From an uncultured Acidobacteriota bacterium (GTDB taxonomy: Bacteria > Acidobacteriota > UBA6911 > RPQK01 > JAPXNP01), in contig CAVZRV010000008.1 of NCBI GenBank assembly GCA_963777605.1, forward strand, positions 224,001 through 288,000: a DNA stretch of 64,000 bases. The letters run 5' to 3'. Below, one piece after another: positions 11,310 to 29,629 of this stretch. The notes below the pieces were generated by a model that did no database searches, was not told where the DNA came from, and was given only the letters and a program-made list of their open reading frames with translations. Both the position numbers and the translations under genes were made by a program. Within the stretch, counting starts at the first letter, position 1, and each line of letters starts with the position of its first letter.

Positions 11310-11365
11310 CGCCGGATCTTTTTGCAATCCCGCAGGATCGTTCGGTATCTTTGCCCCTATATTGG

Positions 11366-11374: not shown

Positions 11375-11413
11375 CGGAACGTTTAGGGGTTCCGAAGTGG
11401 GAGGAGGCTGCTC

Positions 11414-12733: not shown

Positions 12734-14644
12734 ATGAATTCAACCAGCAACCTAATTGAGTCATCCGGTGCATCCTCTGGTCAGATTGAGACCAGACGAG
12801 TCAAAGAGCAGATCATCGAGATCGTCAGCGACTCCGGCGAGGGTGCGCAAACTTGCGGCCAGATGTTCGGGACCATTTGCGCAAAAATGGGGAACGGCGT
12901 CTGGACCGTTGAAATCATACCTGCCGAAATCGAGCCTCCCTATCGGTCGCGGGCCGGAGCGTCGGGGAACCGAATTCGTGTTGGTGCCAAGATGGTGACC
13001 AATGCCGGCGATGAAGCCGACGTGGTCATCGCCTTTAACGAACAGGTGCTTTACAGTCGAATCGACGTCGGTGCGCTTCGCCCCGGGACGATTGTTTTCC
13101 TGGATCAGGTCTGGAAGAACGATCCCTCTGAGGCTGTGCAGCGAGCATACGCCGATGCCTTTAAGGACTTCGAGGAGAAGGGTTACATCGTCATCGAGAT
13201 TCCTCTCCACGAAGAGACCCTCAATTTCACCGACGATCCCCGAAAGGGGAAGAACATGTGGGCGTTGGGGTTGCTCTGCTGCCTGTACAACTGCGACATG
13301 GATATCGCTCGCAGCGAGGTCCGTAAGAAATTCACGCGCAAGGGCGAGCAGGTGATCAACGTCAACCTGGAGATCCTCGAATCAGGCTACCAGTGGGCGC
13401 AGGAATTCATGACAGTTCGTTTCAGCGTCCCTCCTGAAATGCCTTCTACGCCGATGGTGGTCATGAACGGAAACCAGGCTGTCGGGCTGGGTGTCATGGC
13501 GGCCGGGATGGAACTTTGCGCCATGTACCCCATCACGCCGGCCACCTCCGCTTCCCATTACCTCTCGGCAGTGTTCAACACGGTTGGTGGATTCGTCCAT
13601 CAGGCCGAAGACGAAATCGCCGCAATAGGCTTCGCAATCGGCGCATCCTACGCCGGAAAAACCGCAGTGACCATCACCTCGGGCCCAGGCCTCGCACTGA
13701 AGACCGAGTTTTTGGGGCTGGCCGTGATGGCTGAAGTCCCCCTGGTGGTCGTGGTGGTTCAGAGGGGAGGCCCGTCAACCGGGTTGCCGACCAAGATTGA
13801 GCAGGGAGACCTGCTGGCGGTGCTCTTCGCCTCTCCAGGCGACAGCCCGAAAATCGTGATGGCCCCGGCGACGATCGAAGAGTGCTTTCACTTCATTGTC
13901 ACTGCCCGCAAGCTCGCCGAGGACTTTCGCGGTCCGGTCATGGTTCTGACCGACACGAACCTGGCGACCGGTCAGCAACCCTTCGCCCGCCCGAAGGTGA
14001 AGGAAGAGTGGCTTTCAGCGCCGATTGACCAGTCTGCCTGGGACAAGGAGATTGTTCCTTATGCGTGGGACCAGGAAACCGGTCTCTCCAGCCGGCCTCT
14101 TCCTGGACAGCGAGGTGGAGAGTATGTCCTGACGGGTCTGGCTCACGATGAGCGGAGCAAGGTTGCGTACGAGTCTGGGATCAACCAGCGGGCAATGGCG
14201 ATGCGGAGCCGCAAACTGGCGGCTTTGCACAAGAGTCTGAACCCGCCCGAAGTCTATGGCGACCAGGAAGGCGATTTGCTCCTGGTGACCTGGGGGTCAA
14301 CTCTCGGCGCCGCCCGGGAGGCAGTAGAACGGGTTCGAAATGACGGAGGAAATGTCTCGCACGTGCATTTGCGTTTCCTTTCGCCTCTCGAACCGGGTCT
14401 CAGGGAGATCTTCCGGCGGTTCAAACGGGTGCTGACGATTGAGATTAACTACTCCGACGATGTCGATGGAGTTTACATTACCGAGGAGAACAGACGCCGG
14501 TCACAACTGGCAAGGATATTGCGAGACGCGACCCTGGTGGATGTCGATTGCTGGTCGAAAGTACCGGGCAGCCCACTTCCTCCGGGCCGGATCGAGGAAG
14601 AGATTCGAAAGCGGCTGTCTTCGGCGAAGAAGGGACTGGATTGA
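12734..14644 (+). CDS. korA: 2-oxoacid:ferredoxin oxidoreductase alpha subunit
   Basis: N-terminal gamma domain (SDSGEGAQTCG), MNGNQA, intact YPITP, AEDEIAA, TSGPG, QRGGPSTGLPTK; GGAG RBS before ATG 12734. Substrate not determinable. Confidence 0.93.
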   Translation: MNSTSNLIESSGASSGQIETRRVKEQIIEIVSDSGEGAQTCGQMFGTICAKMGNGVWTVEIIPAEIEPPYRSRAGASGNRIRVGAKMVTNAGDEADVVIAFNEQVLYSRIDVGALRPGTIVFLDQVWKNDPSEAVQRAYADAFKDFEEKGYIVIEIPLHEETLNFTDDPRKGKNMWALGLLCCLYNCDMDIARSEVRKKFTRKGEQVINVNLEILESGYQWAQEFMTVRFSVPPEMPSTPMVVMNGNQAVGLGVMAAGMELCAMYPITPATSASHYLSAVFNTVGGFVHQAEDEIAAIGFAIGASYAGKTAVTITSGPGLALKTEFLGLAVMAEVPLVVVVVQRGGPSTGLPTKIEQGDLLAVLFASPGDSPKIVMAPATIEECFHFIVTARKLAEDFRGPVMVLTDTNLATGQQPFARPKVKEEWLSAPIDQSAWDKEIVPYAWDQETGLSSRPLPGQRGGEYVLTGLAHDERSKVAYESGINQRAMAMRSRKLAALHKSLNPPEVYGDQEGDLLLVTWGSTLGAAREAVERVRNDGGNVSHVHLRFLSPLEPGLREIFRRFKRVLTIEINYSDDVDGVYITEENRRRSQLARILRDATLVDVDCWSKVPGSPLPPGRIEEEIRKRLSSAKKGLD

Positions 14645-15600
14645 TGTACGGACTCAAGAAGGATTGGGTTCTTGAAAAACAGCCAAGGGTTTGTGTTCTG
14701 GAAGACTACCAGGGAGCGGAAGCGCGTTGGTGTCCGGGATGTGGAGACCATGCGGTACTGAACGCGGTGCAGCGGGTTGCGCGCGACCAGCAACTGCTTC
14801 CGGAGCGTACCGTGGTCGTTTCCGGGATCGGCTGCTCGAGCCGGTTCCCGCACTACATGAAGACCTACGGCTTTCACGGGTTGCACGGAAGAGCTCTGCC
14901 GGTGGCAACCGGAATCAAGAGCCGGCGGCCCGACCTGGAGATCTTCGTGATCACGGGCGACGGTGACTGTTGCGCTATTGGAACCGCTCACTGGATTCAT
15001 GCGATCCGTTACAACATGAACCTGACGGTCCTGCTCCTGGATAACAACATCTACGGGTTGACTAAAGCCCAGACCTCTCCGACGACTCGTACTTCCGAGC
15101 GGTCCAACACCCACCCGAAAGGATCATTTTTCGTTCCCTTGAACCCGATCTCTGTCGTTCTGGGAATCAGTAACGCGTCCTTCGTCGCTCAGACGGTGGA
15201 CTGGAACCCGCCTCATCTGTACGAGACGATCAAGGCAGCAAGGGAGCACAAGGGAACAGCTTTTGTCCGTGTTCTCCAGCGCTGTCCCCATTACACATCC
15301 CACGTGTTTGCAGAGGCACAGCACGACACCTCTCGCATCCTGTACCTCCAGCACCCCGACGGAATCAACGTTCCGGATCAGGTGGCGAAGACATTCAAGA
15401 ATCAGATGGTGCACGATCCCGCCAATTTGTCCGAAGCGCGCGATATCGCCGAGGAGCCGAACGAGGCGTTCCCGGTCGGCCTGATCTACTTGAATCGCCA
15501 TGCACAGCGATACGACGAGGTGACTTGTCAGGGGCTGGGGATGAGCCCGGTGAAGAAGATCGAAGCGATCGACAAGGCCCTCGATCGATTCATGGTCTAG
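14644..15600 (+). CDS. korB: 2-oxoacid:ferredoxin oxidoreductase beta (TPP-binding) subunit
   Basis: WCPGCG, SGIGC, HGRA, TPP motif GDGD..NN, YGLTKAQ, LQRCP; TGATG overlap with korA. Confidence 0.93.
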   Translation: MYGLKKDWVLEKQPRVCVLEDYQGAEARWCPGCGDHAVLNAVQRVARDQQLLPERTVVVSGIGCSSRFPHYMKTYGFHGLHGRALPVATGIKSRRPDLEIFVITGDGDCCAIGTAHWIHAIRYNMNLTVLLLDNNIYGLTKAQTSPTTRTSERSNTHPKGSFFVPLNPISVVLGISNASFVAQTVDWNPPHLYETIKAAREHKGTAFVRVLQRCPHYTSHVFAEAQHDTSRILYLQHPDGINVPDQVAKTFKNQMVHDPANLSEARDIAEEPNEAFPVGLIYLNRHAQRYDEVTCQGLGMSPVKKIEAIDKALDRFMV

Positions 15601-15627
15601 CCGCTGGGGGTTCGGCCGAGCGTCACA

Positions 15628-18600
15628 ATGGAAAACATTATGGGCAGGACGTCTGCCCGGGAGGCATCTCAGTTGAGAAGAACGCCCGAAATCGCGTCGG
15701 GAGAAGTGCTTGCTTCCGCTTTGGAGTGCGTTGAAGAACTCGAGCGGGCTATCTGCGGCGAGTCTGGGGTGGGGAGTCCCGCCTATGCGTTGGGACGGTC
15801 ACTTTCCGGACTCAGGTCGGCGGGTATCCGCACTGCGGAATGCCGGTGTCCAAATGGCCCCTCGAAGCCGACTCCCGTAGTCATTCACAGTCCGTCGTTC
15901 GCTGGCGTCGCGGAAGATGCCGGCTTGGTCCTCGTATCCGGATCGCACCAGGCGGCTCTCGAAAACTGCATCGTGGCCAGGAGGGTGGCCCAAACCCTGG
16001 GTATTCGTGTCGAGCACGTCATCGCACCCGGGACGGCTGACACCTTGGGTCTCGCTCGACTTCCAGAAACTGGGCAACTCGACAAACTCCTTGCCGAGTC
16101 CGGCGCCGATCCCTCACCGTCGGGCGATTTGGCCGCGGCGGTTGCTGCCGCGTTTGAAACGGTTCGAAGCATCGTGGGGAGCCGCACCTCGGCAGTCCGG
16201 TGCTCGGGCACGACGGACTCTCCGGTCTGTGTTGTAAGCCTGGGTGCCGGCAGTGCCTACTGCGATGAACTGGCTGAACTCCCGGGTGTTTCGATTCGCG
16301 CGATCACGGTAAACCAGTGTCGGCCGTTTCCGGCTGAAGATCTCAAGACTGCTCTTAAAGGTGCGGAGTCCGTGATTTTTGTCGCGGCGGAGGAGTCTCC
16401 TCTCCACCTCTGGTTTTCCAACGAGTTGAATGAACTGGGCGTTACTCCGGTGAAGACGGTGTTGCTTGAAGATCTTCCCGGTTCGGCTGAGGGCTTGGCT
16501 GGACTGCTTTCGGAGAAGCTTCCGCAGGAGCAACGCAAAGCTTTGGCGGCGGCACCGGCCAAGAGGGAAGTTCCCTCCCTGGCGATTGCAGTGCATCCAT
16601 CGGGATCCCGGGCCCGCAAGATCCTCCTGAGGACCGGCGCGACGTTGTGGACTGCACTGGGTCTCCAACCCGGCGATCTCGCCGTTGACGGGTCACGCGG
16701 CTGGACCGCGCTGCGGGCAGGCAAAGACTCTGCGGGACGTGAACTCGATCTGGTAGTTTTGTTCGAAGACCAATTGGCGGACTCAGCCCCGGACTTCGAA
16801 ATGATCCGCCGCGGTGGCGGGGTCATTCTGGTGGCCGGACAGAACCTGGAAGCTTCTTCCTCCTGGAGGAATCTGCCCAGGTCGATACGCACCCAGATCG
16901 AGCAGGGCAACCTTCGGCTCTGGTGGATCAATGTTTCGCAGGAGAATGGTTCGGAGTGCCGGCTCTTGTCCCGGGCGCTCGTGTCTGCGATGGCCTCCGC
17001 CCAAATGATTTCGGTCACCGGCCAGAGCCCGGTTTTTTCCCTTCACCAACTGGACCCGGGTGTGCTTGATTCCAGCGCCGGTCAAGAAATCGACTTCAGG
17101 ACCGGTGCCGGGCTTCCCGGAATGGAACGGCCGCGTGAGGATGCTGAAGCGGCGACGACGCTCCTCCGCCGACTGGTGGAATTTCACCTTGCCGGCACGA
17201 AGCCGGGAGATTCCGTAGCTGCTCCCCAGGTCAGTCCCATGATTCCGGCGGCAGTTCGTGCCGAGTCTCTCGGCGAATCCCATACCGTGTTTCCGTTCTA
17301 CCTTCCCGCTCCCTCTGCGGAGGACCGGCCGAGATCACTCGCGGAGTTATTCTCGGAGGCGCTGGGCAGTTCGGCAGCCACCACCGTGCTGGGAAGAGTG
17401 TTGCCGGATGTGCTGGCTGGACTGACGTCGGAGATTCCCGATGGCGGTTCTCTTTCGATGGATCGGCTGCGCCAGGCCGTAAAGGGACTTGAGGCCCGGA
17501 TTGATGTGAGCGCTGCCGGGAAGGTACAACTCTCGGGAGAACTGAAAACGGTTGAAGAGAGCTTGCCCGCGAAAGGTTCGGTGGTCGGTGTTGATGGCGA
17601 CACCTGGGCCGGCCTCTACCATTGGAGCCTCACACGGGAGCGCAGCGCGGTGCGCAACCGGCTGCTCTTGCAGGTCGAAAGGCTTCTGAACGATCTGGAA
17701 GCGCTCCTTCTCGCTGACGACAAGCTCAAGCCGGAATCGCGCACCGCACCCGCAATTCAGTCCTCGCTCGGGTTCGAGGGGACCCTGTTCATCAATGCAG
17801 GGCGCCTCTCGGGAATCATTCCCCCTGCGCAAGGGTCCCAGGGGCTTACGCCGGAACGGCGAGAGCGGGTCGCCGGGGTTTGTGCCAGCCTTCGCCGATT
17901 CATTGAAGAGTCCGCCCAGACCCCGGACCTGTACGTTTTTCAATCGGGTTCCCTGGAACACGAACTTGCCGGAGTAGTGACGGTGAGGTCTGAAGATCCA
18001 TTCGATGCCGCCCTGGGCCTGTTCGACGGTCTGGCCGCCAAGGTTATCGAAGCCATGAAGGCGGTTCGCGTGGGGAATCTGGAACTTTCGGGGGAATTCA
18101 ATCCGGAGGTCCACCAGCGGATTCTGGAAGGCTTCACCTGGGAGGCACTGAACGAAGATGAAGTGCTCCTGCTGCCGAGCATTCTGGTCGTGGAAAAGAT
18201 TACCGGACTGCCCCGTCGGACCCTTCCCGGGTTCCATCGACTGCTTCAGTCCGGCATGCCCATTCACGTGGCGGTCCTGATCGACGGGGCCGAGTGGTCG
18301 GATGACGACCTGCTGAAGCAGTTGAGGGGTGTTCTTCCGGATCCTGGCTACCTCGGCCTGGCTCACCGTGAAGCGTTCGTGCTGCAGTCGTCGGTCTGCC
18401 GTCCCGATCACCTGCTTGCCGGCCTCGGCCGCATGATGCGGGCACCCGGTCCGGGAGTCCTGGTGCTCGAATTTGCCAGTGCCCCTTCGGATTCGGCGCG
18501 AGCCTGGTCAGGTTGGCTTGCCGCCTGGCTGTCGCGTACGGTACCTTTTTACAGCTATGACCCGTGGAAGGGCGATTCCTGGGCGGACCGCTTCTCGGTC

Positions 18601-19509
18601 GACGGCAACCTCAATCCCGAGAGCGCCTGGGTAGTCACCGAGTTCGAGTGCCAGGATGCCAATGGGTCTGAACAGTCGGTTGCAGAGTCGATCACCTTCG
18701 CCCACTTTGCGGCCCTCGACAGTCGACTCCGGAGCCAGTTCTACGTTCTTCCCCACGAAATTGAGTCCGACCGGCTAATTCCGGTTGCGGAATATCTCGA
18801 TCGCCTCGACGAACTGCCCGAAGGCGCAGTCCCCTTCATATGGGTACTGGCGGACAAAGGTGAGAAAGTTCGTCGCGCCGTCATCACCCGGGACCTGTTG
18901 GCTGGATGCCGGGATCGCTCCCGTGCGTGGAGAATTCTCCAGGAGCTGGCCGGCCTGCGCAATGTTTACGTGGAGCGGGCGGTCAACACTGCTCTGGAAG
19001 AATCAGCTCGAAGGGCGCAAGTCGAACAGGATGCCGCCGTCAAGGCAGCACGCCGGGAAGGGGCGACGGAAGCGGTCGACAAGTTGGTCTCCGCACTTTC
19101 CAACCCCGATGCGCTTGTACGCGGTGCGGCTGTTGACACAGTTGCCCGACCGGCCGTAGCAATGCCGTCCACCGAATCGACTTCGGCGGCCCCCCAGGCG
19201 GAGGAACAATCTGAGCCCGCGGCTCCGGCGGCTGAACCGGAACCGGAAGAAGAAGAGCTTTCCGCCGAGCCCTATATCGATTCCTTTTTGTGCACGAGCT
19301 GCAACGACTGCATCAACCTCAACTCACGAATGTTCGGCTACAACAGTGACCGTCAGGCGTACATCGTGGATCCGTCGCAGGGCACGTTTTCGGAACTGGT
19401 TCGGGCGGCGGAATCGTGTCCGGCGAGTTGCATTCACCCGGGACTGCCTCGTCCCGGTGACAAAACCGCGACGCCTGAGCTCGTGGAACGAGCCAAAGCT
19501 TTTCAGTAG
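15628..19509 (+). CDS. Degenerate pyruvate:ferredoxin oxidoreductase-fold protein with C-terminal ferredoxin domain (pseudo-PFOR 1)
   Basis: PFOR-like remnants GRSLSGLRS, CRPFP, GLAHREAFVLQSS, PFYSYDP..DRFSVDGN, ITFAHFA, WRILQELAG; no YPITP or GDG; C-terminal CTSCNDC..CPASC. Confidence 0.8.
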   Translation: MENIMGRTSAREASQLRRTPEIASGEVLASALECVEELERAICGESGVGSPAYALGRSLSGLRSAGIRTAECRCPNGPSKPTPVVIHSPSFAGVAEDAGLVLVSGSHQAALENCIVARRVAQTLGIRVEHVIAPGTADTLGLARLPETGQLDKLLAESGADPSPSGDLAAAVAAAFETVRSIVGSRTSAVRCSGTTDSPVCVVSLGAGSAYCDELAELPGVSIRAITVNQCRPFPAEDLKTALKGAESVIFVAAEESPLHLWFSNELNELGVTPVKTVLLEDLPGSAEGLAGLLSEKLPQEQRKALAAAPAKREVPSLAIAVHPSGSRARKILLRTGATLWTALGLQPGDLAVDGSRGWTALRAGKDSAGRELDLVVLFEDQLADSAPDFEMIRRGGGVILVAGQNLEASSSWRNLPRSIRTQIEQGNLRLWWINVSQENGSECRLLSRALVSAMASAQMISVTGQSPVFSLHQLDPGVLDSSAGQEIDFRTGAGLPGMERPREDAEAATTLLRRLVEFHLAGTKPGDSVAAPQVSPMIPAAVRAESLGESHTVFPFYLPAPSAEDRPRSLAELFSEALGSSAATTVLGRVLPDVLAGLTSEIPDGGSLSMDRLRQAVKGLEARIDVSAAGKVQLSGELKTVEESLPAKGSVVGVDGDTWAGLYHWSLTRERSAVRNRLLLQVERLLNDLEALLLADDKLKPESRTAPAIQSSLGFEGTLFINAGRLSGIIPPAQGSQGLTPERRERVAGVCASLRRFIEESAQTPDLYVFQSGSLEHELAGVVTVRSEDPFDAALGLFDGLAAKVIEAMKAVRVGNLELSGEFNPEVHQRILEGFTWEALNEDEVLLLPSILVVEKITGLPRRTLPGFHRLLQSGMPIHVAVLIDGAEWSDDDLLKQLRGVLPDPGYLGLAHREAFVLQSSVCRPDHLLAGLGRMMRAPGPGVLVLEFASAPSDSARAWSGWLAAWLSRTVPFYSYDPWKGDSWADRFSVDGNLNPESAWVVTEFECQDANGSEQSVAESITFAHFAALDSRLRSQFYVLPHEIESDRLIPVAEYLDRLDELPEGAVPFIWVLADKGEKVRRAVITRDLLAGCRDRSRAWRILQELAGLRNVYVERAVNTALEESARRAQVEQDAAVKAARREGATEAVDKLVSALSNPDALVRGAAVDTVARPAVAMPSTESTSAAPQAEEQSEPAAPAAEPEPEEEELSAEPYIDSFLCTSCNDCINLNSRMFGYNSDRQAYIVDPSQGTFSELVRAAESCPASCIHPGLPRPGDKTATPELVERAKAFQ

Positions 19510-19530
19510 AAAAGCCAGGAGCGAATAAAA

Positions 19531-20382
19531 GTGGAACCAGTGATTACGGCTGCAATCATTATGACCGGTCTGGGTGTGGTCTTCGCTTCCATTCTGGCCA
19601 CCGCAGACCATCTCCTCCGAGTCGAAGAAGATCCGAGGCTCGAACAGGTGGAAGGCATGCTCCCGGGAAACAACTGTGGGGCATGCGGCGAGCCCGGTTG
19701 CCAGGCTTTCGCCGGACGTCTTGTCAGGGGGGAAGTCGCTCCTGGCAAGTGTACGGTCAGCACGGAAGAAGCCCTCGTCCAGATCGCCGGGTTTCTGGGC
19801 GTTGATGTCGGCGGTGAAGAGAAGCGTGTCGCACGGCTCAAATGTGCGGGCGGAGAGGGCCTGGTTGCCGATCTGGCAGCGTACAACGGCATTTCGTCCT
19901 GCAGGGGTGCCGTCGTGGTTGACGGCGGAGGACGTGCCTGTACATGGGGCTGCCTGGGACTGGGCGACTGTGAAACCGCCTGCACATTCGATGCGATTCA
20001 CATGAACTGGGAAGGGCTTCCGCAGGTCGATCCGAATCTTTGCACTGCTTGCGGCGACTGCGTGGGCGCCTGCCCCCTCGACCTTTTCACTGTCGTCCCC
20101 ATGTCTCACAATCCGTTCGTACAGTGCAATTCACCGCTGACCGGCGAAGCCGCCCGGTCGCGCTGCCCGGTCGCCTGTGACGCTTGCGGTCGTTGTGCGG
20201 CCGACGCGCCGGCAGGAGTCATCGAGATCGTAAATGGATTGCCGGTGATTCACTACGACCGCGAGGAGAAGCCGACGCAGAGATCCACCTGGCGATGCCC
20301 GACAGGTGCCATTACGTGGATTGAGGGCGAGCAGTTTTCCGAACCTCTAGTTCAAATCAGTAGGGAGCGAATCCGTGCGTAA
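19531..20382 (+). CDS. rnfB: Rnf complex subunit B
   Basis: N-terminal TM helix, EDPR..LPGNNCGACGEPGC, CLGLGDCETAC, CTACGDCVGACP. Confidence 0.92.
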   Translation: MEPVITAAIIMTGLGVVFASILATADHLLRVEEDPRLEQVEGMLPGNNCGACGEPGCQAFAGRLVRGEVAPGKCTVSTEEALVQIAGFLGVDVGGEEKRVARLKCAGGEGLVADLAAYNGISSCRGAVVVDGGGRACTWGCLGLGDCETACTFDAIHMNWEGLPQVDPNLCTACGDCVGACPLDLFTVVPMSHNPFVQCNSPLTGEAARSRCPVACDACGRCAADAPAGVIEIVNGLPVIHYDREEKPTQRSTWRCPTGAITWIEGEQFSEPLVQISRERIRA

Positions 20383-23300
20383 TCTCATATCCAAACTCCG
20401 GTTCGAGCGTTTAAGAAAGTTGTTGGGTGCCGGTGCAGCCGACCAGGGGAAAAAGACCGCAAAAACGGAACTTCTGGAGGTTCAGGAAGCTGTAGCTCTG
20501 GCCGAGGCCATGATCTGCGACATGATCGCGCATTGCTCCGGAGAAGAGTCTCCGGGATTCCAGGAGACCTCCAACGGATTCTCCTCGACCAATGCTTTTG
20601 GCCGACAGGTAGTGAGCGTCGATCTTCCCGGCGTGGCTGAGGGGATTGCCGCTGGTGCCGGTATGACCATGAGTGGGCTCCGATCTTCGGTCTTTCTTCC
20701 CGGTGACCACCTTTCCGAGGGTTATGCCCAGCTCCAATCGATCGCGAGCCGCTATGTCCCTTTGGTGTTGCACGCTGCCTTTCGTGAGGGTTTTGGCCCC
20801 GGCAGCAATCATGCCGGCTACCACGGGGCCGCGGACCTGGGCCTTTTCCAGGCAATGCCCCAGACGGTCCAGCAAGCCATCGACCTCACCTTTCTGTTCC
20901 ACTGGGTTGCCGAGCGGACGTTGATCCCCGGGCTCCTGGCCTTCGACCGCCGTGTCGCCGAGATGGCCGCGTTCCCGACGATCGATTCCATTCGGGAGTT
21001 CCTCGGTGCGCCCGATGCCTCGCTCGCGGCACCCAATCCGGCGCAACTGTTGTTGTTCGGACCAGAGCGACCGGGTGTCCCCGGTTGGTTCGACGTGGAC
21101 CGGCCGGTTTCCTTCGGCTCTCTCCAGGGGTCCAACGACGCGGCCAGCGCCGCGGTCGGCAGACAGGCCTTCTTTGCCGGGCACCTGCCCGAATTGCTCG
21201 ACGAGGGCATGGAGCGGCTCTCGAAATTGACCGGTCGTCCCCTCACCTTCCTGGAACAGGACGAGGTTGATCGGGCCGATTTCGTGCTCGTCACCCAGGG
21301 CAGCTCTTACGAAACCGCTCGGGCGGCCGCCTCCTACCTGAGACAGAGCAAGGGGCTGTCGGTTGGCGTCCTCGGCTTGACCTGGCTGCGTCCCTTCCCG
21401 TCGGCCCAACTCGCCCAGGCACTGCGTGGGAAGCGGGGCATTGCCGTACTCGAGTGTTCCTCGGTGGTGCTTTCCGACCAGGGGAGCCTGATGCGGGAGG
21501 TTCGCTCGGCGGCGGGCGCCCAAAGTGGCAACGCGACCTGGATTTCGGCCAGCTTTGGGCTTCACGGCCAACCGCTTTCGGCCGGCCAGGTCGTTGATTT
21601 GACCATGGAGCTGAAGGAAAAGAAGCCGCGCTCCAAAGTCTGGCTGGGGATCGTTTCCGGGCCCTCGAAGATCGGCGACTACCCCAAGCGGGAAAGCCTG
21701 GTGAAGTCCGTAGCGAGCGATTATCCCGAACTGACCCAGAACACGATTACCGGCCACGGCGTAGAAAAGCTAAGCGCCCAGGAACTGAAGACGGTTCAGT
21801 GGGTGGGTTCCTCCAGTCTGGAACCATCCGACGTCATCCGGCAACTCGTTGATCGTTGCTCCGACGTGGCGCGCGCCAAGATCAGGGGTTTCGGCTGGTA
21901 TCCGGAACCGGGCATCCTCTCGGTTCGTGTTTCGATGGGGCCCGACGAAATTCCGATTGCCGAGGCGGGAGCAGGCGTAGACGTGCTGCTTCTGGGACGC
22001 CTCGGCCTCGACCTGATCCACAACCCTCTCGCGGATCTCGGAGCAGGCGCCACGATCGTTGTTGAATCCGACCGTGCGGCCCAGGAAGTTTGGCATCTGA
22101 TGCCCGATTTCTGGAGATCAGAGGTGCGGCGCCTGAAATTGAAAATGTACAAGGTGGAGACGGGCTTCGACCAGTTGGCGGCGGCGGCCGGCGCAATCAT
22201 CTCGGGCTCGGTGGATCTCCCGTTCCCCGAGATTGAATGGAAGAACCTGGAAGACCCAGCGGGCGACCCGGATGACGTTCCGAAGCTCGTCCGTCGGGCC
22301 GGGGACGCCGGTTCGAGTTACAGCAACCTGCCCCGGTTCTGGGGTGAGGTCATGCAGCCGAAACGGGGCGGGATTTCCGAGAATTTTCCAGATCCCCTGG
22401 TTACCGCGGACGCTGTTCCACCGTACACTGCGGCACTGGCGCGCCCGCGGGGAACGGCGCTGCCATCTATGCCGGTTCTCGACCCCGAGAAGTGTACCGG
22501 TTGCGGTCACTGCTGGCCGGTCTGCCCCGATTCCGCGATTGGTGCCACCCTGCTGAGCCTGCAGGACTACCTGGATGTGGCGGCGGATCAGACGGGGGTT
22601 GAAGGGAAAGTGGCGGCCGCCCTCAAGCGCGCCCACCGTCCCATTGCGGCCCGCGTCGCAGTGCTGATTCGCGAGCGCAACCTGAAGACGGTCCCTGAGG
22701 AAATCTGGCTGGAGGCCTTCGCATCGGTGATCGGCAAAATTTCGGTGCCGGATGGAGAAATGCCCCAGTACAAAGCCGCCTTCCAGGCGACTGCAGAGAT
22801 GGCCCACCGCCTGTCTCCGGTAGTCACCGAGCCGCTCTATTCCAAGCTGGAGTCGGAAAGCCAAAGGTAGCGGCCAGATTCTCATTTTGGCCTTTAACCC
22901 GGACGCCTGCCAGGGATGCCAGCTCTGCATCATGAGCTGTCCCGAATCGGCCCTGCTGGCGATGGACCGGGCCGGAACGGTGAAGGAGGATGCCCGGGAA
23001 GGATGGAAAGTCTGGGAGAATCTTCCGGATACTCCGGGTAACGTCATCGAGAAGGTGGAGGCCGACCTGGAACTCGGCCAGCTGGCCGCCCGTTTTCTGA
23101 GCCGCCACAGTTCCCAGGTCCAAGCCGTCGGGAGTTTCGGCGAGCCCGGTTCGGGCGAACGGCTGGCCTGCCGGATTGTGAGTGGAATCGTCGAGTCCCA
23201 GCTCCAGAAACGGCTCGCCGACCAGGCGGCCGAAGCATCGAAACTGGCCGGCCAGTTGCGGGACCAGGTGCAGGGACAATTGGCGAAAGGTCTCACCGAG

Positions 23301-24683
23301 GCCGACCCGAAAGCAATCCAGTCGGCACTCGAGAGCCTGCCTCGCCACCGGGTGAGCCTGAGCGACCTGAGCGAACGCCTCTCCTCGTTTGGAAAGGCGG
23401 TCTCTCTCGATCCCGTCAAGACTCTTCGACTCGCGCAGACCGCGCATGACCTCGAAACGGAAGCCTGGCAGTTGACCGAAGGGCCCAACCGGCTGGGCCG
23501 TTCGCGGTTCAGCGTGGTTATCGTCAGCCATCGAATCGCCCGTTGGGCGGGCCGGTTCCCCAACCATCCCTACAACGCGCCCCTGGTCGTTGAACCTTCT
23601 CCGGAAGGCGCAGGTCTCGCGGTGGGGCTGGCCGAGGCGGCTGCACTGAAGCATGTCGACCGGGTCCGTACCTATCGTCGTGCGAACCTCTACCTGGAGA
23701 ATCCTTCGGATCTTCCGGGGCGGCTCGTCGACCTGGAAAACCTGACCTGGAGTGATCTGACCGCTGAAGAGCGGGCTACTTGCCCGCCGCTGCTCGTGTT
23801 TGCCGATGAGAGTGCCTTGAGGCGGCAGGGCCTTGGAGCCCTGGGCAGCCTGCTTTCGAGCAAGATCCCCGTAAAACTCATTCTCCTCGACACCCGTTTC
23901 GTGAATCTGGCAACCCCGGAACCGGCCCTGTTTGGTCTCGGTTTCCCGGGGGCCTTCGTTCTCAGTGGTTCACTTGGAGCGCTGGTACACCTCGAGAACA
24001 ACCTTGAAGAGGCCATCAAATTCTCCGGTCCGGCCGTGATCCACATTCACGTTCCGATTCCGCAGGAACAGGGTTTCGAACCCTCCAAGACGATTGAGAG
24101 AGCGCGGTTGGCCGTGCAGGCCAGGGTTCAGCCGCTGTTCGTCTTCAATCCCGCAGCAGAAGGTGCGTTCGGTCTTCGGGTCTCTGTCGAAGGCAATCCC
24201 GGGATAGATTCTCCCTGGGGCGGTTGCGATCCGATCCAGTGGGCCTTCGAAGAGGAACGGTTCAAACCGTTCTTCGTTCCCCTGTCCGAGGATGTCCCAT
24301 CCACCGACTGGAGGGAATATGTTGGACTGGCGGAAGAAGATCGCCGGGACACGGTACCTTCCTACGAGGATGCTGGCGGCAACACCTGGAAGATCGACCG
24401 TCGGCTGGCGGCGTTCGCCGAACGTCGAAGTTCGATTTGGGAGATCTACCAGGAAATCGGAGGCATCGCCAGTCCTCACCTGGATCGGCTTCGCTCGGAA
24501 GTCGAGCAGGAAGTCACGGACCAGAGCCGGGCGGAGTTCGAGGAAACGAAGGCGGGATACGAAGCGCGCATCAGCCAACTGGAACAGGAATCCGATACCA
24601 GGCTCGCCGGACAATTGCGAGAGCGTCTCCTGGTTCTGGCCGGGTTCGGCTCCAAAACCCATACGGATGACACTAATGAGTAG
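20375..24683 (+). CDS. Degenerate PFOR-fold protein with a 2x[4Fe-4S] domain (pseudo-PFOR 2); one gene interrupted by a single-base frameshift near 22857-22870
   Basis: ORFs 20375-22870 and 22887-24683 join into about 1435 aa if one base is removed from GAAAGCCAAAGGTAG. AGMTMSGLRS, HAGYH, WLRPFP, CTGCGHCWPVCP, CQGCQLCIMSCP, RVQPLFVFNP. Could instead be a pseudogene or a sequencing error. Confidence 0.75.
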
Positions 24684-26013
24684 CGCAGTAACTGCTGAGA
24701 CAGCAACCAAGACTTTCCGTCACGGGGTTCACCCGCCGGAGAGAAAGGACTCGACTGAAGGCCGCCCGATTGAACGGGTTCCCTTCGGGAAGGAGTTCAC
24801 GCTTCCGCTCTCCCAACACATCGGTGCGCCTTCGGTTGCAATCGTGAAGCCGGGTCAGCGCGTGGTCCGGGGGGAGACGATCGCCAATCCGGGCGGATTC
24901 GTCTCCACCTGCCTCCACGCTCCCGTGACCGGAACGGTGACGGCGGTAGAACCCCGCCTGCACCCGAACGGAAAGATGATGCCTGCGATCGTGATCGAGG
25001 CCGATCCCTTTTCCTCTCAGAGAGTCGTTCCTCACAAGGTTCCTGCTCCTGAAGGCCTGAGCAATGGCGACCTGGTCAAGCAGGTCCAGATGTCCGGGCT
25101 GGTCGGACTCGGGGGAGCCGCCTTTCCAAGCCACGTCAAGCTCTCGCTTCCCGAGAAGCGCCGGATCGAGTTTGTGGTGATCAACGGCTGTGAGTGTGAG
25201 CCCTATCTGACCTGTGATCACCGAGTTATGGTGGAGCGCGCGGAGTTGGTCATCCGCGGCACCCAGATCATGATGAACAACCTGGGTGCCAATCGAGCCT
25301 ACATCGGGATCGAGTCAAACAAGCCGGACGCCGCCGAGGCATTGAAAGCCGTTGCCCCGTCAAACATTGAAGTCGTTGTGGTCCAGGTCAAGTATCCCCA
25401 AGGCGCCGAGAAGATGCTGATCGACGCAATTCTCGAGAAAGAGGTCCCGAGCGGGGGCATTCCCCTCGACATCGAAATTTTGACCAATAACGTCGGGACG
25501 ACGGCGGCCCTGGCCGACTGGTTTGACCGCGGCATTCCGCTTCTGGAGCGGGTAGTCACGGTAACCGGACCCGGAATCCCCTACCCGCGAAATCTGCTGG
25601 TCCCGCTCGGCACCCCAGTCTCGGCGATCGTGGACTACTGCGGCGGATTGTCCGCCGAAACCCGTCAGGTGATCATGGGTGGTCCTATGATGGGAATGGC
25701 CCAGAAGACACTGGACGTGCCGGTAATGAAGGGCACATCGGGAATTCTGGCCTTGACCGAAGTATTTCAGGCAGTCGCCCAGGAATATCCCTGCATTCGC
25801 TGTGCCCGCTGTCTCGAGGCCTGTCCCATGTTTCTTAATCCAACACGGTTGGCCCACCTCGCCAAGTTCGAGCGCGTCGATGATTTGAAGGATTATCACG
25901 TTCTCGACTGCTTCGAGTGCGCTTCCTGTTCATTTGTCTGCCCGTCGAATATCCCGCTGGTGCAGTGGATTCGGATGGGTAAGGCGGCGGTTCGAGAGGC
26001 ACAGAAGAAATGA
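24676..26013 (+). CDS. rnfC: Rnf complex subunit C
   Basis: TFRHGVHPP, QHIGAP, GLVGLGGAAFP, NGCECEPYLTCD, KYPQGAE, GGPMMG, CIRCARCLEACP, CFECASCSFVCP. Confidence 0.95.
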   Translation: MSSAVTAETATKTFRHGVHPPERKDSTEGRPIERVPFGKEFTLPLSQHIGAPSVAIVKPGQRVVRGETIANPGGFVSTCLHAPVTGTVTAVEPRLHPNGKMMPAIVIEADPFSSQRVVPHKVPAPEGLSNGDLVKQVQMSGLVGLGGAAFPSHVKLSLPEKRRIEFVVINGCECEPYLTCDHRVMVERAELVIRGTQIMMNNLGANRAYIGIESNKPDAAEALKAVAPSNIEVVVVQVKYPQGAEKMLIDAILEKEVPSGGIPLDIEILTNNVGTTAALADWFDRGIPLLERVVTVTGPGIPYPRNLLVPLGTPVSAIVDYCGGLSAETRQVIMGGPMMGMAQKTLDVPVMKGTSGILALTEVFQAVAQEYPCIRCARCLEACPMFLNPTRLAHLAKFERVDDLKDYHVLDCFECASCSFVCPSNIPLVQWIRMGKAAVREAQKK

Positions 26014-27041
26014 GTATCGCGCGCAAGCACGACCTGACACTTTCCACTTCACCCTTTCTCCACGCCCAGTCCACGACGCCGCGGATCATGGCCGACGTGC
26101 TGTTGGCGACGGTCCCGGTGATCCTGGCTGCGTGCTGGTTTTTCGGACTGGGCATTCTGCTCGTGGTCGCAGCTGCCACAGCCGGGGCGGTCTTTACCGA
26201 GTGGATCTTTACCCGGGGGCAACACCCCAGCCCTCTAGTCGACAACAGCGCGTTGCTCACCGGAGTTCTTTTGGGATTGGTATTGCCGCCGAGCTTTCCA
26301 CTCTGGATGGCCTTTCTCGGCGGAGTGGCCGCAATCGGGCTGGGCAAACTGATCTGGGGTGGACTCGGACAGAATGTTTTCAATCCGGCGCTGGTAGGAA
26401 GGGCCTTCCTCCAGGCGTCGTTTCCGACCGCCATTACCAGCTGGACGGCCCCGTCTCAGGGGCTCTTCTCCGTGCCCGCGAAGATCTTCACGGTTCCGCT
26501 CATGCAATCGACGGCGGACACGGTGTCGGCGGCGACTCCACTGGGTTTGTTCAAATTCTCCAGCGAGTTCACCGATGTCGTGTCGCTTTTTATCGGAAAG
26601 ATCGGCGGCTCAATTGGCGAGACGAGTGCCCTGATTCTGATCCTGTGCGGTCTTTGGCTCGGATTCAAGCGAATTTTCGACTGGCGGCTCCCGGCCAGCA
26701 CCCTTTTGTCCGTCGCCGTATTCAGTGGAATCTTCTGGGCCTGGAACCCGAGCAAATTTCCGAGTCCTCTGTTCATGTTGTTTTCCGGCGGAATTCTGTT
26801 TGCCGCGGTATTTATGGTGACCGATCCAGTCTCGACTCCGACTACCCGTAAGGGCGCCTGGATATTCGGGATTGGTGTCGGATTCCTGGTTGTGATCATC
26901 CGGCTCTTCGGCGGACTCCCGGAAGGTGTCATGTACGCGATTCTCTTGATGAACGCGGTGAACCCTTATATCAATCATTACACTCAGCCTCGCATTTTCG
27001 GCGGGGCCAAGAAGAAGTTGGCCGGAGCCGAAGGGAAATGA
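26010..27041 (+). CDS. rnfD: Rnf complex subunit D
   Basis: GGLGQNVFNPALVGR, flavinylation-site-like DTVSAATPL, GSIGETSA, FMVTDPVSTP. Confidence 0.95.
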   Translation: MSIARKHDLTLSTSPFLHAQSTTPRIMADVLLATVPVILAACWFFGLGILLVVAAATAGAVFTEWIFTRGQHPSPLVDNSALLTGVLLGLVLPPSFPLWMAFLGGVAAIGLGKLIWGGLGQNVFNPALVGRAFLQASFPTAITSWTAPSQGLFSVPAKIFTVPLMQSTADTVSAATPLGLFKFSSEFTDVVSLFIGKIGGSIGETSALILILCGLWLGFKRIFDWRLPASTLLSVAVFSGIFWAWNPSKFPSPLFMLFSGGILFAAVFMVTDPVSTPTTRKGAWIFGIGVGFLVVIIRLFGGLPEGVMYAILLMNAVNPYINHYTQPRIFGGAKKKLAGAEGK

Positions 27042-27098
27042 TGATGCGCTCCAGTAGTTGCACAGGTTGGACGCGCTGATTTGAGAGGAGCGTGAATA

Positions 27099-27740
27099 AT
27101 GAGTTCAGCAAAACGACCAGGACCGGCACGGCTGATTCTGACCCTCGGGGGGGCCGGATTCATCTCGGGGTTGCTCCTGGTAACCGTATACCTGGCCACC
27201 AAGCCGATCATCGAGCGAAACCAGGCCGAAGCTCTGGAGGCCGCAATCTATCGAGTTGTCCCGGGATCAACTACGCGAAAGGCATTTGAGCTGAAAGACG
27301 GCAAGCTGGTTGCCGTTGAGTCGAGCGGAAACGCGCTGCCTTCCGGCGAGGTGATCTACGGGGCCTACAATGACCAGGACCAGTTGCTCGGCTATGCCAT
27401 CCCGACCGAAGGAGCCGGTTTCCAGGACACCATCAAGCTTATCTACGGATTTGATCCCCACGACCAGAAGATTGTTGGAATGGAAGTCCTGGACAGTCGG
27501 GAGACTCCGGGACTTGGCGACAAGATCAGCAAGGATCAGCACTTCCTGGACAACTTCAAGGACCTTGCCGTGGAACCAGAGGTGGTCGCGGTGAAATCGG
27601 GGACAAAGACCAAGCAGAATGAAGTCGACTCGATCAGCGGTGCCACGATTTCGTCCAAGGCCGTAGCCAAGATTATCGAACAGGCCAATCTCCGCTACCT
27701 TCCGGCTATTAACGCGGCCCCACAGGAGCAATCGAAATGA
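27099..27740 (+). CDS. rnfG: Rnf complex subunit G
   Basis: N-terminal TM helix, ETPGLG, FMN-binding DSISGATISS. Confidence 0.93.
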   Translation: MSSAKRPGPARLILTLGGAGFISGLLLVTVYLATKPIIERNQAEALEAAIYRVVPGSTTRKAFELKDGKLVAVESSGNALPSGEVIYGAYNDQDQLLGYAIPTEGAGFQDTIKLIYGFDPHDQKIVGMEVLDSRETPGLGDKISKDQHFLDNFKDLAVEPEVVAVKSGTKTKQNEVDSISGATISSKAVAKIIEQANLRYLPAINAAPQEQSK

Positions 27741-28378
27741 GTACGCGAGAGAGGTTATACGACGAGACGGTCAAGGGATTCTGGAAAGAGAACCCGGTTT
27801 TCGTACAGTTGCTGGGCCTGTGTCCTGCCCTGGCCGTCACGAATTCGGCAATAAACGGGCTCGCCATGGGCTCGGCTACAACGTTCGTTCTGGTGGGTTC
27901 CAGTTTCCTGGTTGGATTGCTGAGGAACCAGATCCCCAAACAGGTCCGGATTACCAGCTTTATCGTTATCATCGCGACCTTTGTAACTGTTGCCGACCTG
28001 ACCCTCCAGGCCATGTTGCCCACCGTTCACAAAGAACTGGGTGCGTTCATCGCGCTGATCGTCGTCAACTGCATCATCCTTGGCCGCCAGGAAGCGTTTG
28101 CGTCGCGCAACCCGCTCGGCCTGGCCTTAGGAGATGCCTTCGGAATGTCTCTGGGGTTCACCTTTGCCCTGCTGACCGTGGGCAGCATCCGTGAAATCCT
28201 TGGATCCGGATCCCTGTTCGGTTATGACCTCTTCGCGGGCCACTTCGAGCCCTGGGTCATCATGATCCTGCCCCCGGGCGGATTTCTCACCCTGGGAGTG
28301 CTGCTCATAATCTTTGCGCAGGTCAAGAAGAACCGCGCCCTCAAGGCTGCCATGCGACTCGAGAAGGAGGCCGCATAA
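27737..28378 (+). CDS. rnfE: Rnf complex subunit E
   Basis: ENPVFVQLLGLCPALAVT, LIVVNCIILGR, LPPGGF. Confidence 0.95.
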   Translation: MSTRERLYDETVKGFWKENPVFVQLLGLCPALAVTNSAINGLAMGSATTFVLVGSSFLVGLLRNQIPKQVRITSFIVIIATFVTVADLTLQAMLPTVHKELGAFIALIVVNCIILGRQEAFASRNPLGLALGDAFGMSLGFTFALLTVGSIREILGSGSLFGYDLFAGHFEPWVIMILPPGGFLTLGVLLIIFAQVKKNRALKAAMRLEKEAA

Positions 28379-28956
28379 TGGGAAACTACCTCTGGATTTT
28401 CGTCTCGGCGGCGATTATCAACAACTTCACCCTGGCCTACTTTCTCGGGCTCTGTCCATTTTTCGGAGTCAGCAAGAAGATTGAGACCGCCTTTCGACTC
28501 GGCCTTGCGAACATCTTTGTCATGGTGATCACGTCGGTTTGCGCCTGGGCGCTGAACACGTTCGTGCTCCCCTACGCGCCATATCTCCGGCTGATGACCT
28601 TCATTGTGGTTATCGCGAGTACCGTTCAGTTCGTGGAGATGGTGATCAAGAAGCTGAGCCCCGCACTGTTCAAGGCGCTTGGGATCTACCTTCCCCTGAT
28701 CACGACGAACTGTGCCATCCTGGCGCTGGCGCTGTTTCAGACCAACCGGGGCTACGGGTTCGGCGAAGGCCTCGTGTTCGCGGTCGGTGCCGGCGTTGGC
28801 CTGACCCTCGCTCTGGTTCTCATGGCGGGTGTCCGGGAGGAAGCCGAACTCTCGACTATCCCTGACGTTCTGCAGGGCGCCGGCATGGCTTTTCTGATTG
28901 CCGGGATCCTCTCCATGGCCTTCATGGGCTTTGCCGGGCTTTTCAGCGGAGCTTAG
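28378..28956 (+). CDS. rnfA: Rnf complex subunit A
   Basis: NNFTLAYFLGLCPFFGVS, LGIYLPLITTNCAIL, AFMGFAG. Confidence 0.95.
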   Translation: MGNYLWIFVSAAIINNFTLAYFLGLCPFFGVSKKIETAFRLGLANIFVMVITSVCAWALNTFVLPYAPYLRLMTFIVVIASTVQFVEMVIKKLSPALFKALGIYLPLITTNCAILALALFQTNRGYGFGEGLVFAVGAGVGLTLALVLMAGVREEAELSTIPDVLQGAGMAFLIAGILSMAFMGFAGLFSGA

Positions 28957-28960
28957 CAAG

Positions 28961-29167
28961 ATGTGGAGCTACCTGATCGTCGCTGTTCTCCTGGGGCTTG
29001 CCTGCATCGTTTTCGGACTCCTGCGGGCGGACGTCAGCGAGGACGAAGATAGCCACTGTGAACCGGGTGATTGCCACGGCTGCTCGGAACACCACCGGTG
29101 CGGAGATGACTTTTCGTTCCATCAGCCGATGACTGATCCGAGGGAACTGTTTCGAAACCGAAAGTGA
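28961..29167 (+). CDS. Small single-TM Cys/His-rich protein (68 aa), NqrM-like or FeoB-associated-like
   Basis: MWSYLIVAVLLGLACIVFGLL then HCEPGDCHGCSEHHRC; ATG 4 nt after the rnfA stop. Confidence 0.7.
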   Translation: MWSYLIVAVLLGLACIVFGLLRADVSEDEDSHCEPGDCHGCSEHHRCGDDFSFHQPMTDPRELFRNRK

Positions 29168-29209
29168 TTTCCACGGCCGCCTGACTCGGCGCCCGTGCGG
29201 GAGATGACA

Positions 29210-29605: not shown

Positions 29606-29629
29606 TTCGTTCTCCTGTCTGCTTCTTTC

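Follow-up and report, generated by a model that had tools for sequence, protein, structure and literature searches.

What are two very large proteins that resemble pyruvate:ferredoxin oxidoreductase (PFOR), but lack its catalytic residues, doing inside an Rnf operon? The question is raised by a 64,000-nt stretch of DNA from an uncultured Acidobacteriota bacterium (GenBank assembly GCA_963777605.1, contig CAVZRV010000008.1, positions 224,001 to 288,000), which is called the window here. A single plus-strand run of genes in the window, 12734-29167, has the order korA-korB-X1-rnfB-X2-rnfCDGEA and closes with a gene for a small Cys-rich membrane protein; X1 and X2 encode the two giants. Our results suggest that X1 and X2 descend from a long form of PFOR, that both are catalytically dead as families, and that both are kept by selection next to an intact KorAB and a complete Rnf. 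The cluster may provide a dedicated 2-oxoglutarate:NAD+ route through Rnf, in which the electron path is built by the two dead long-PFOR descendants. We give this reading a probability of about 0.55.

Common origin of X1 and X2 and loss of catalytic motifs

The first-pass annotation of this DNA had derived both giants from PFOR, and three approaches corroborated this: hhalign, comparison of the family profiles with the PFOR structure 6cin, and a Foldseek search with the X1 core, described below. By hhalign, the family alignments of X1 and X2 match each other with a probability of 100 and an E-value of 9.7e-81 over 1129 columns, and BLASTP detects residues 795-1142 of X1 in the 3' part of X2 (1e-14). 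The X2 family profile was made from 34 orthologues, out of 45 reference sequences with a continuous X2, and covers domains I, II, III, V and VI of the Moorella PFOR (6cin_A, E 8.8e-77) and of the Desulfovibrio PFOR (1b0p_A, E 1.1e-70). The X1 family profile matches 6cin in its N-terminal part (E 1.2e-18). X2 thus has the domain order I-II-III-V-VI of the homodimeric PFORs (6cin, 1b0p, 7plm), and X1 is alike in its N-terminal part and in the fold of its core; unlike these enzymes, neither X1 nor X2 has YPITP, GDG, the catalytic Glu or ligands for the proximal [4Fe-4S] cluster.

There is a third paralogue in the genome carrying the window, designated G000 (G numbers denote genomes and L numbers fetched loci). 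This protein of 1688 aa, the long PFOR, is encoded by a solitary gene away from rnf (L093:4130-9196, corresponding to G000:C7:980129-985195). An ApbE flavin-transferase gene lies ~1 kb downstream of it on the opposite strand (L093:10287-11318, minus strand). The G000 long PFOR retains YPITP, the catalytic Glu, CxGCGE, TGCS and GDG. An insert of ~135 residues between the ferredoxin motifs and a long C-terminal extension are common to X1, X2 and this protein, and X1 and the long PFOR also have an extra terminal ferredoxin domain of the Fer4_13 family. In an unrooted FastTree phylogeny (71 rows, 809 columns), the 34 X2 rows (support 100), the 29 X1 rows (support 100) and the 8 long PFORs (support 98) each fall on one side of a branch. 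Judged by these comparisons, X1 and X2 are paralogues descended from a long PFOR.

The motifs were compared in a single alignment of 8 long PFORs, 29 X1 and 34 X2 sequences. YPITP, EPEGEHAAA, both ferredoxin motifs, GDGAClGCGEKT, NaTGCtSVW and GGDGAMYDIGF...DTQVYSNT are conserved at 80% or more in the long PFORs. In X2 (the 34 orthologues and the window), neither the features of the thiamine pyrophosphate (TPP) site (YPITP, the Glu of domain I and GDG...DT(x)YSNTGGQ) nor those of the proximal [4Fe-4S] cluster are conserved. CxGCGE is replaced by EPGSGE (EPGSGERLA), TGCSS by a Cys-free stretch, and the C-terminal Cys (PC) by PSPxRHGF. Most of the 34 X2 orthologues have both CxxCxxCxxxC motifs, and so has the window, where a frame break separates the two; Cys were lost from one or both of these ferredoxin motifs in L039, L048, L076, L085 (Planctomycetota/Phycisphaerae), L060 and L030, although these loci retain X2 at its usual position in the operon. 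None of the TPP-site or PFOR [4Fe-4S] motifs was found in the 29 X1 rows, in which the columns of the domain V motifs are gaps. Pfam and NCBIfam searches of X1 and X2 matched no families other than PFOR and ferredoxin domains. No new cofactor motif was found in either protein. From these motifs we judge X1 and X2 to be catalytically dead as families. The earlier statement that KorAB keeps its catalytic motifs while X1 and X2 have lost them therefore holds family-wide, in 29 X1 and 34 X2 rows.

X1 and its C-terminal ferredoxin domain

Three features were delimited in X1:
15628-19509, plus strand: X1, 1293 aa, a catalytically dead PFOR paralogue of the long form (hhalign, profile, AlphaFold2 and Foldseek)
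19126-19254, plus strand: X1 linker, residues ~1167-1209, low-complexity and Ala/Glu/Pro-rich (pLDDT < 50 at model residues 673-715)
19270-19509, plus strand: C-terminal single-cluster ferredoxin domain of X1 (Pfam Fer4_13, PF13370, 30.7 bits, cut-off 24.5)

Residues 1 to ~490 of X1 correspond to degenerate PFOR domains I-III, and residues ~495-1165 comprise an equivalent of domain V without clusters, a domain-VI-like fold and a long helix. Pfam detects nothing in X1 beyond the C-terminal Fer4_13. An AlphaFold2 model of residues 495-1293, made with a 40-row alignment, had a mean pLDDT (predicted local distance difference test) of 83.1 and a pTM (predicted template modeling score) of 0.73. With this model, Foldseek placed PFOR at the top (6ciq_B, E 2e-06, probability 1.00), followed by beta subunits of 2-oxoacid:ferredoxin oxidoreductases (OFOR; template modeling score, TM, 0.4-0.48 to the target). 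The ferredoxin domain is similar to ferredoxin I in the PDB entry 1dax (E 8e-4) and, by Foldseek, to Desulfovibrio africanus ferredoxin I (1fxr_A, TM 0.79, root-mean-square deviation 2.1 A). The only invariant Cys of the X1 family are C1222, C1225, C1228 and C1264, with C1268 nearly so, and all of them lie in the terminal Fer4_13.

The stretch from L1157 to C1222 measures 54-68 residues (median 61) in all 29 family members and consists of Ala, Glu and Pro at 46%. The sequence of the linker is unconserved, and an acidic run precedes the ferredoxin domain. A steady length, a variable Ala/Glu/Pro-rich sequence and a pLDDT below 50 are together the signature of a flexible tether. The lipoyl domains of 2-oxoacid dehydrogenase complexes swing on Ala/Pro-rich linkers, and there is an analogy with X1: in both cases a small carrier sits, next to an enzyme that oxidizes 2-oxoacids, on a tether conserved in length and variable in sequence. 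In X1, however, the carrier would be a mobile [4Fe-4S] or [3Fe-4S] ferredoxin, not lipoate.

The X1 core is widespread. A search of 1.84 billion entries with residues 495-1293 found 1811 cluster representatives at E <= 1e-3, of which 819 reach E <= 1e-30. The family has a long form of ~1270-1370 aa and a short form of ~780-870 aa. Among 80 X1 relatives, 20 are long and 60 match only residues ~495-1293, as given by the extent of the tblastn matches (a few are cut by contig ends). The first-pass annotation had proposed that X1 and X2 pair as a heterodimer in imitation of the PFOR homodimer. Since these 60 relatives lack domains I-III, such a heterodimer cannot be the general architecture. Complex prediction with residues 55-598 of the X2 3' part and residues 725-1165 of X1, fragments without domain I of X2 (29-row alignment each), gave a score of 0.00 (mark 0.32), which favors neither contact nor its absence.

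X1 relatives are mostly named "ferredoxin" in public records, and also "hypothetical protein", while 3 of 4 named Joint Genome Institute (JGI) rows for X2 relatives read "pyruvate-ferredoxin/flavodoxin oxidoreductase". The earlier expectation that automated pipelines would label both giants as PFOR is thus borne out for X2 and not for X1. Given these names, metabolic reconstructions may count X2 as an active PFOR.

X2 and its frame break in the window

X2 is present in the window in two pieces:
20375-22870, plus strand: X2 5' part, 831 aa, with degenerate PFOR domains I-III and the first ferredoxin Cys motif (Pfam POR_N, PFOR_II and Fer4; PDB 6cin_A, 1.6e-16)
22824-24683, plus strand: X2 3' part, open frame of 619 aa (598 aa from the TTG at 22887), with Fer4 at residues 2-23 (OFOR beta chains 5c4i_C, 5e-08, and 9bt4_C, 6e-06)
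22857-22859, plus strand: X2 frame-break site, a run of three A (two bases in three orthologous loci)

The frame that starts at 20375 closes at the TAG at 22868-22870, and the remainder is open in the +1 frame. This 3' part contains the second Cys motif, a domain-VI-like fold without ligands for TPP or a cluster, and a C-terminal helical extension. In the DNA alignment at the break, the window reads GGAAAGCC and three orthologous loci read GG-A[AG]--, which is a difference of one extra A. The break falls between the two Cys motifs, as shown by the Pfam 4Fe-4S matches on each piece, and therefore cuts the ferredoxin domain. The single X2 reading frame of ~1435 aa described at first is consequently not found here, where it is split into frames of 831 and 598 aa, although it is a single frame in the relatives. 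Both X2 halves lie in one open frame in all 52 loci of relatives that hold both, and 45 of these yield a continuous product of at least 1150 aa. The X2 open frames in family genomes have 1421-1916 aa, with the exceptions of G000 (619 aa), G012 (1128 aa) and one at a contig start.

Public reads were consulted for the break. Five runs contained only 4-9% of the sampled words, and no contig spanning 22857-22859 was found in four runs; the extra A may be an assembly error or a real mutation. A programmed frameshift was set aside: the break occurs in G000 only among the family genomes, and the short A run has no slippery motif that we recognize on reading it.

Irregular X2 genes were seen in two other loci. 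In L018 (G004:C1), only the first ~570 residues of X2 adjoin rnfB, and the remainder, together with rnfC, is ~875 kb off (~4.876 Mb and ~4.000 Mb); this split is a rearrangement or a misassembly. In L033, rnfB, X2, rnfC, rnfD and rnfA are each found in several tblastn pieces, which resembles an error-rich assembly and not biology.

KorAB, Rnf and the layout of the cluster

The remaining enzyme genes of the cluster are the following:
12734-14644, plus strand: korA, fused gamma-alpha subunit (PFOR domains III, I and II) of a two-subunit 2-oxoacid:ferredoxin oxidoreductase (Pfam POR, POR_N and PFOR_II)
14644-15600, plus strand: korB, TPP-binding beta subunit (domain VI) with one [4Fe-4S] site (TPP_enzyme_C)
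19531-20382, plus strand: rnfB (Pfam FeS, PF04060, and 4Fe-4S dicluster domains)
24676-26013, plus strand: rnfC (TIGR01945, 528 bits, cut-off 246)
26010-27041, plus strand: rnfD (TIGR01946, 328 bits, cut-off 207)
27099-27740, plus strand: rnfG (TIGR01947, 107.8 bits, cut-off 102)
27737-28378, plus strand: rnfE (TIGR01948, 230.3 bits, cut-off 213.4)
28378-28956, plus strand: rnfA (TIGR01943, 225.7 bits, cut-off 229.3; Pfam Rnf-Nqr, 8.9e-55)

KorAB is a two-subunit OFOR with intact TPP and cluster motifs. KorA exceeds the cut-off of TIGR03710 (531.4 bits, cut-off 482.75), has 6n2n_A as its closest solved relative (E 1.4e-86), and retains YPITPAT and the Glu of EDE. KorB retains CPGCGDH, GIGCSS, GDGD, LDNN and RCPHY and matches 5b48_B (4e-51) and 6n2n_B (3e-50); with TIGR02177 it scores 239 bits, below the cut-off of 261.9. 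korB begins with an ATG that shares 1 nt with the korA stop, and the listed open reading frame (ORF) with a TTG start at 14548 is over-long in comparison with the conserved protein. Architecture and motifs are shared with the enzyme of PDB entry 6n2n and with the Sulfolobus OFOR (5b46/5b48).

All six Rnf subunits (A, B, C, D, E and G) are present. C, D, G and E exceed the NCBIfam cut-offs, and A and B are just below them. In addition to its Pfam domains, rnfB matches NF005504 (E 4e-58) and NF005503 (E 1e-53), and it scores 67.5 bits with TIGR01944 (cut-off 68.7). Solved Rnf complexes (RnfB chains) are among the PDB matches (7zc6, 9eri-9erl), and the rnfD of the cluster is the sole rnfD found in G000. 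To our knowledge, the Rnf complexes characterized so far consist of six subunits and receive their electrons from free ferredoxin. The subunit set and the order rnfB...rnfCDGEA of the cluster correspond to the Rnf complex, but a PFOR-derived gene of ~1430 aa lies here between rnfB and rnfC, and a second one before rnfB.

The genes are closely packed. There are gaps of 27, 21, 57 and 4 nt, and the remaining junctions overlap by 1-8 nt. The first-pass description of eleven co-directional genes, overlapping or at most ~60 nt apart, is accurate in that the largest gap is 57 nt, as is its statement that X2 overlaps both rnfB and rnfC, by 8 nt in each case.

Conservation of the gene order and distribution

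A scan of one genome per species gave at least 536 loci with a gene for an X1 relative, and the best 80 were fetched with 10-kb flanks. Genes were counted by tblastn with the window proteins in loci with enough room, namely at least 3.2 kb for korAB, 1 kb for rnfB and 9.5 kb for the full order. The korA-korB pair lies directly upstream of X1 in 62 of 66 loci, and rnfB is the next gene downstream of X1 in 61 of 76. The full order rnfB-X2-rnfCDGEA is present in 33 of 49 loci; 7 of the 16 failures are due to sucCD, which displaces rnfE and rnfA beyond the flank. Two-subunit enzymes of the KorAB type draw on external ferredoxin. They have no ferredoxin (delta) subunit or domain of their own, and here the ferredoxin-bearing X1 is nearly always the next gene (the same 62 of 66 loci).

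According to the record titles, X1 loci occur in Acidobacteriota, Myxococcota/"Deltaproteobacteria", Planctomycetota, Gammaproteobacteria, Spirochaetales, Latescibacterota, Schekmanbacteria, Verrucomicrobiales, Kiritimatiellae and Lewinellaceae. The many gammaproteobacterial carriers include, by title, Thiodiazotropha, Sedimenticola, Thiomargarita, Woeseiaceae and Chromatiaceae, and other titles name Polyangiaceae and "Deltaproteobacteria bacterium TL4"; some binned labels among the titles, such as "Enterobacteriaceae", look unreliable. The synteny across phyla that had been expected was thus found, both for korAB-X1 and for rnfB as the next gene. When G000 was compared with 40 relatives, rnfC was matched strongly (E <= 1e-142, identity of at least 69%) in exactly the 15 genomes that bear X1 and in none of the 26 others. 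This co-occurrence is descriptive, as kin are not independent, and the 26 include one unpublished genome (G018), without which the proportion is 15 of 40. A distribution complementary to that of 2-oxoglutarate dehydrogenase was considered and rejected: sucA is present in G000 and most carriers, and went undetected only in the genus g8.

The genes sucC-sucD, for succinyl-CoA synthetase, are located between X2 and rnfC in 7 of the 80 loci, all gammaproteobacterial (L038, L043, L045, L054, L056, L067 and L068; for example L038:17238-19300 and L043:18158-20206).

Parts of a second, divergently oriented rnf cluster (rnfA/E/D or rnfG/D, 32-52% identity) were seen just upstream of korA in L043:1718-4586, L080:1488-4507 and L073:5172-6741. 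These Gammaproteobacteria thus carry two Rnf systems side by side.

An intact long PFOR in the X2 position of other Rnf operons

Fifteen of the loci have korAB-X1 without an adjacent rnfB, and the genomes of ten of them were searched. In seven of the ten, a long PFOR of 1630-1720 aa, 48-51% identical to that of G000, is encoded immediately before rnfC (loci L100-L106). These are G041 (Pirellulaceae), G042 (Bryobacteraceae), G044 (Verrucomicrobiales), G045 (Kiritimatiellae), G046 (Acidobacteriia), G047 (Latescibacterota) and G049 (Thiotrichaceae). The gene lies between rnfB and rnfC in six of the seven, and in G045 the contig begins inside it. Where the locus extends far enough (L100-L103), rnfDGEA follow. 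The three proteins checked (L100, L101 and L103) have YPITP, two GDG, CxGCGE, TGC[ST] and the ferredoxin motifs. The long PFORs of these operons carry the C-terminal ferredoxin domain, and the same genomes hold korAB-X1 elsewhere. In G049 there is, in addition, an rnfB with an X2-like gene next to it on the 3' side (L109), and in G048 an X2-like gene lies ~1 kb before rnfC (L110). In G050 the long PFOR has no rnf gene within ~1.1-1.5 kb (L107), and in G043 there was no clear case of a long PFOR next to rnf.

The order rnfB-long PFOR-rnfCDGEA is a second operon type, apparently undescribed, with examples in Planctomycetota, Acidobacteriota, Verrucomicrobiota, Latescibacterota and one Thiotrichaceae genome, and X2 is the catalytically dead counterpart of its PFOR.

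Selection on X1 and X2

X1 and X2 are under purifying selection. By the Nei-Gojobori method, the ratio of nonsynonymous to synonymous substitution rates (dN/dS) was 0.18-0.28 for X1, 0.06-0.13 for X2, 0.06-0.11 for korA and 0.03-0.16 for the rnf genes in three usable locus pairs, with dS saturated in two of the pairs and ~0.3 in the third. These values omit korB of two pairs and X2 of L019/L016, since L016 is cut by the contig end. Neutral evolution of X1 and X2, named in the first-pass annotation as an outcome incompatible with its proposal, is contradicted by these ratios, which lie well below 1. Two more of the four outcomes named there, a gene order not conserved elsewhere and orthologues that retain YPITP/GDG, are likewise contradicted by the synteny and motif results.

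Proposed function and alternative explanations

How might a cluster of this composition work? In the mechanism that we propose, KorAB would catalyze the reaction 2-oxoglutarate + CoA <-> succinyl-CoA + CO2 + 2 e-. X1 would be its built-in swinging ferredoxin, held on a tether of ~60 residues, and X2 would be a docking platform on the Rnf side, as well as a wire to RnfB where its clusters are retained. The predicted net result is 2-oxoglutarate:NAD+ oxidoreduction coupled to Na+/H+ translocation; in reverse, NADH and an ion gradient could drive the synthesis of 2-oxoglutarate in autotrophs. We infer the order of the electron carriers and that free ferredoxin would be dispensable. X1 is tied to korAB more faithfully than to rnf, and X2 sits in the slot that an active PFOR occupies elsewhere, which argues for a KorAB-side part and an Rnf-side part and not for a symmetric pair. 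That the cluster functions as one coupled module is quite probable. It is a more tentative idea, with the odds rather against it, that there is a widespread and undescribed class of Rnf complexes in which proteins of the long PFOR type form integral peripheral subunits.

Several points weigh against the proposed mechanism. A stable KorAB-X1-X2-Rnf assembly, whose physical contacts are predicted from the genes, has in our estimate a little less than an even chance. We infer 2-oxoglutarate as the substrate of KorAB from the gene context (sucCD in 7 of 80 loci) and from the nearest solved relative, 6n2n. G000 itself has sucA, for the E1 component of 2-oxoglutarate dehydrogenase (875 bits), so that the distribution cannot be used to argue that the module is the only 2-oxoglutarate step of the cycle. 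In 15 of 76 loci korAB-X1 has no adjacent rnfB, and unrelated genes (where named) follow in the six inspected; X1 therefore also works, or at least is kept, away from rnf. The loss of Fe-S Cys from X2 in six loci means that X2 is not an obligatory wire everywhere. X2 is frameshifted in the window itself, and a genuine break might impair the module in G000. Furthermore, the 80 loci are the best-scoring ones and not a random sample, their relatives are not independent, and the saturation of dS limits the selection estimates.

Among the alternatives, co-regulation without a stable complex survives best, and we regard it as unlikely. X1 would then be a soluble "giant ferredoxin" for KorAB and X2 a soluble carrier or adaptor, both acting by diffusion and transient docking to RnfB, and the operon would serve only for co-expression. 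This would agree with the 15 loci in which korAB-X1 stands without rnf, next to unrelated genes, with an ordinary ferredoxin domain as the sole conserved cofactor site of X1, and with the absence of any membrane anchor that we could see in X1 or X2. However, if X1 and X2 were plain carriers, there would be no need for a PFOR scaffold of ~800-1400 residues that is conserved and held by purifying selection. Nor does co-regulation alone agree with the fixed place of X2, or of an intact long PFOR, in the rnfB-rnfC interval, where stop and start codons overlap, or with the presence of Rnf in 15 of the 15 X1 carriers among the 41 genomes searched.

It is improbable, and clearly more so than co-regulation, that X1, X2 or both have acquired a new TPP-free activity or a regulatory or assembly role, such as binding of CoA or succinyl-CoA, electron gating or Fe-S maturation of KorAB or Rnf. 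Invariant or nearly invariant residues do occur outside the ferredoxin domains (R914, E915, R970, W985, R988, N994 and W1101 in X1; the motifs EPGSGERLA and PSPxRHGF in X2), and some X2 orthologues are retained despite the loss of Fe-S Cys. Most of the conserved stretches, however, correspond in the alignments to structural elements of PFOR domain VI and of the C-terminal region, and the Pfam and NCBIfam results given above hold only PFOR and ferredoxin families.

Finally, the loss of all catalytic motifs and the 1-nt X2 frameshift in the window could be read as the decay of functionless PFOR duplicates, with X2 already a pseudogene in G000, but this is very improbable and contradicted at the family level by the 819 X1-core cluster representatives at E <= 1e-30, by intact X2 genes in 45 loci across many phyla, by the low dN/dS, and by the tree, in which X1 and X2 each form one well-supported group, so that the motifs were lost long ago and the genes have been retained since.

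Borders of the cluster and neighboring genes

The last gene of the cluster encodes the small membrane protein:
28961-29167, plus strand: small membrane protein of 68 aa with one transmembrane helix and a Cys/His-rich tail (HCEPGDCHGCSEHHRC), directly 3' of rnfA

A comparable small protein follows rnfA in 14 of 18 related loci with room, as counted by a heuristic script. Comparison with FeoB-associated Cys-rich and NqrM-like families gave a sub-threshold score for PF12669 (17.8 bits, cut-off 27, E 0.004) and no match to NqrM. An analogy with NqrM would make the protein a putative maturation factor.

An ORF of 570 aa on the plus strand (29195-30907) was considered as a further member of the module. 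It has no family match, is antisense to a gene for a pyridoxal phosphate (PLP)-dependent decarboxylase (29630-30805, minus strand) and is probably spurious; the module therefore ends at 29167. The flanks (9168-12040 and 30998-32530) look unrelated to it and encode a GHL6-family glycosyl hydrolase, a class I methyltransferase and a sodium:solute symporter. In a promoter and terminator consensus scan of 11900-30000, sites were no commoner than in shuffled sequences, and an Rfam search of 9000-33000 matched nothing.

Relation to known systems and significance

Rnf, PFOR and KorAB are each well known; their joint module with dead paralogues is new to the literature that we searched. Full-text searches found no description of either operon type, nor of X1 and X2. 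The closest parallel is described in PMC6315080. According to this article, korABCD genes are interspersed with flxABCD-hdrABC in tubeworm symbionts and in Thioflavicoccus mobilis, and direct shuttling of electrons from the complex to the 2-oxoglutarate:ferredoxin oxidoreductase (OGOR) is proposed. Both cases have an OGOR, predicted in ours, that is genetically hard-wired to an energy-converting electron-transfer complex. In PMC6315080, however, Hdr-Flx takes the place of Rnf, the OGOR is a four-subunit enzyme, and dead PFOR paralogues are absent. In PMC11636981 a "PFOR-like" gene and a dimeric "korAB(3)" are reported to drop together in expression in Endoriftia; they are candidate orthologues of X2 and KorAB.

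These results bear on how the low-potential electrons from 2-oxoacid oxidation are conserved. They also bear on how sulfur-oxidizing and other autotrophs raise electrons from the level of NADH to that of ferredoxin for reductive carboxylation. If our reading is correct, a hard-wired OGOR-Rnf or PFOR-Rnf would add an ion-translocating step to central carbon metabolism and would shield the low-potential carrier from side reactions. The operon rnfB-PFOR-rnfCDGEA with an active long PFOR would encode a membrane-bound, ion-pumping pyruvate:NAD+ oxidoreductase. The form with X2 and KorAB-X1 would be an ion-pumping 2-oxoglutarate:NAD+ oxidoreductase, in which a tethered ferredoxin replaces the soluble one. 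This would give the citric acid cycle an extra energy-coupling site and, in reverse, a CO2-fixing carboxylase driven by the ion gradient. X1 and X2 would also illustrate clearly how a respiratory complex can recruit pseudoenzymes as its scaffolds and wires. The large X1 core family is found in groups of environmental importance, such as Acidobacteriota, Myxococcota, Planctomycetota and thiotrophic symbionts.

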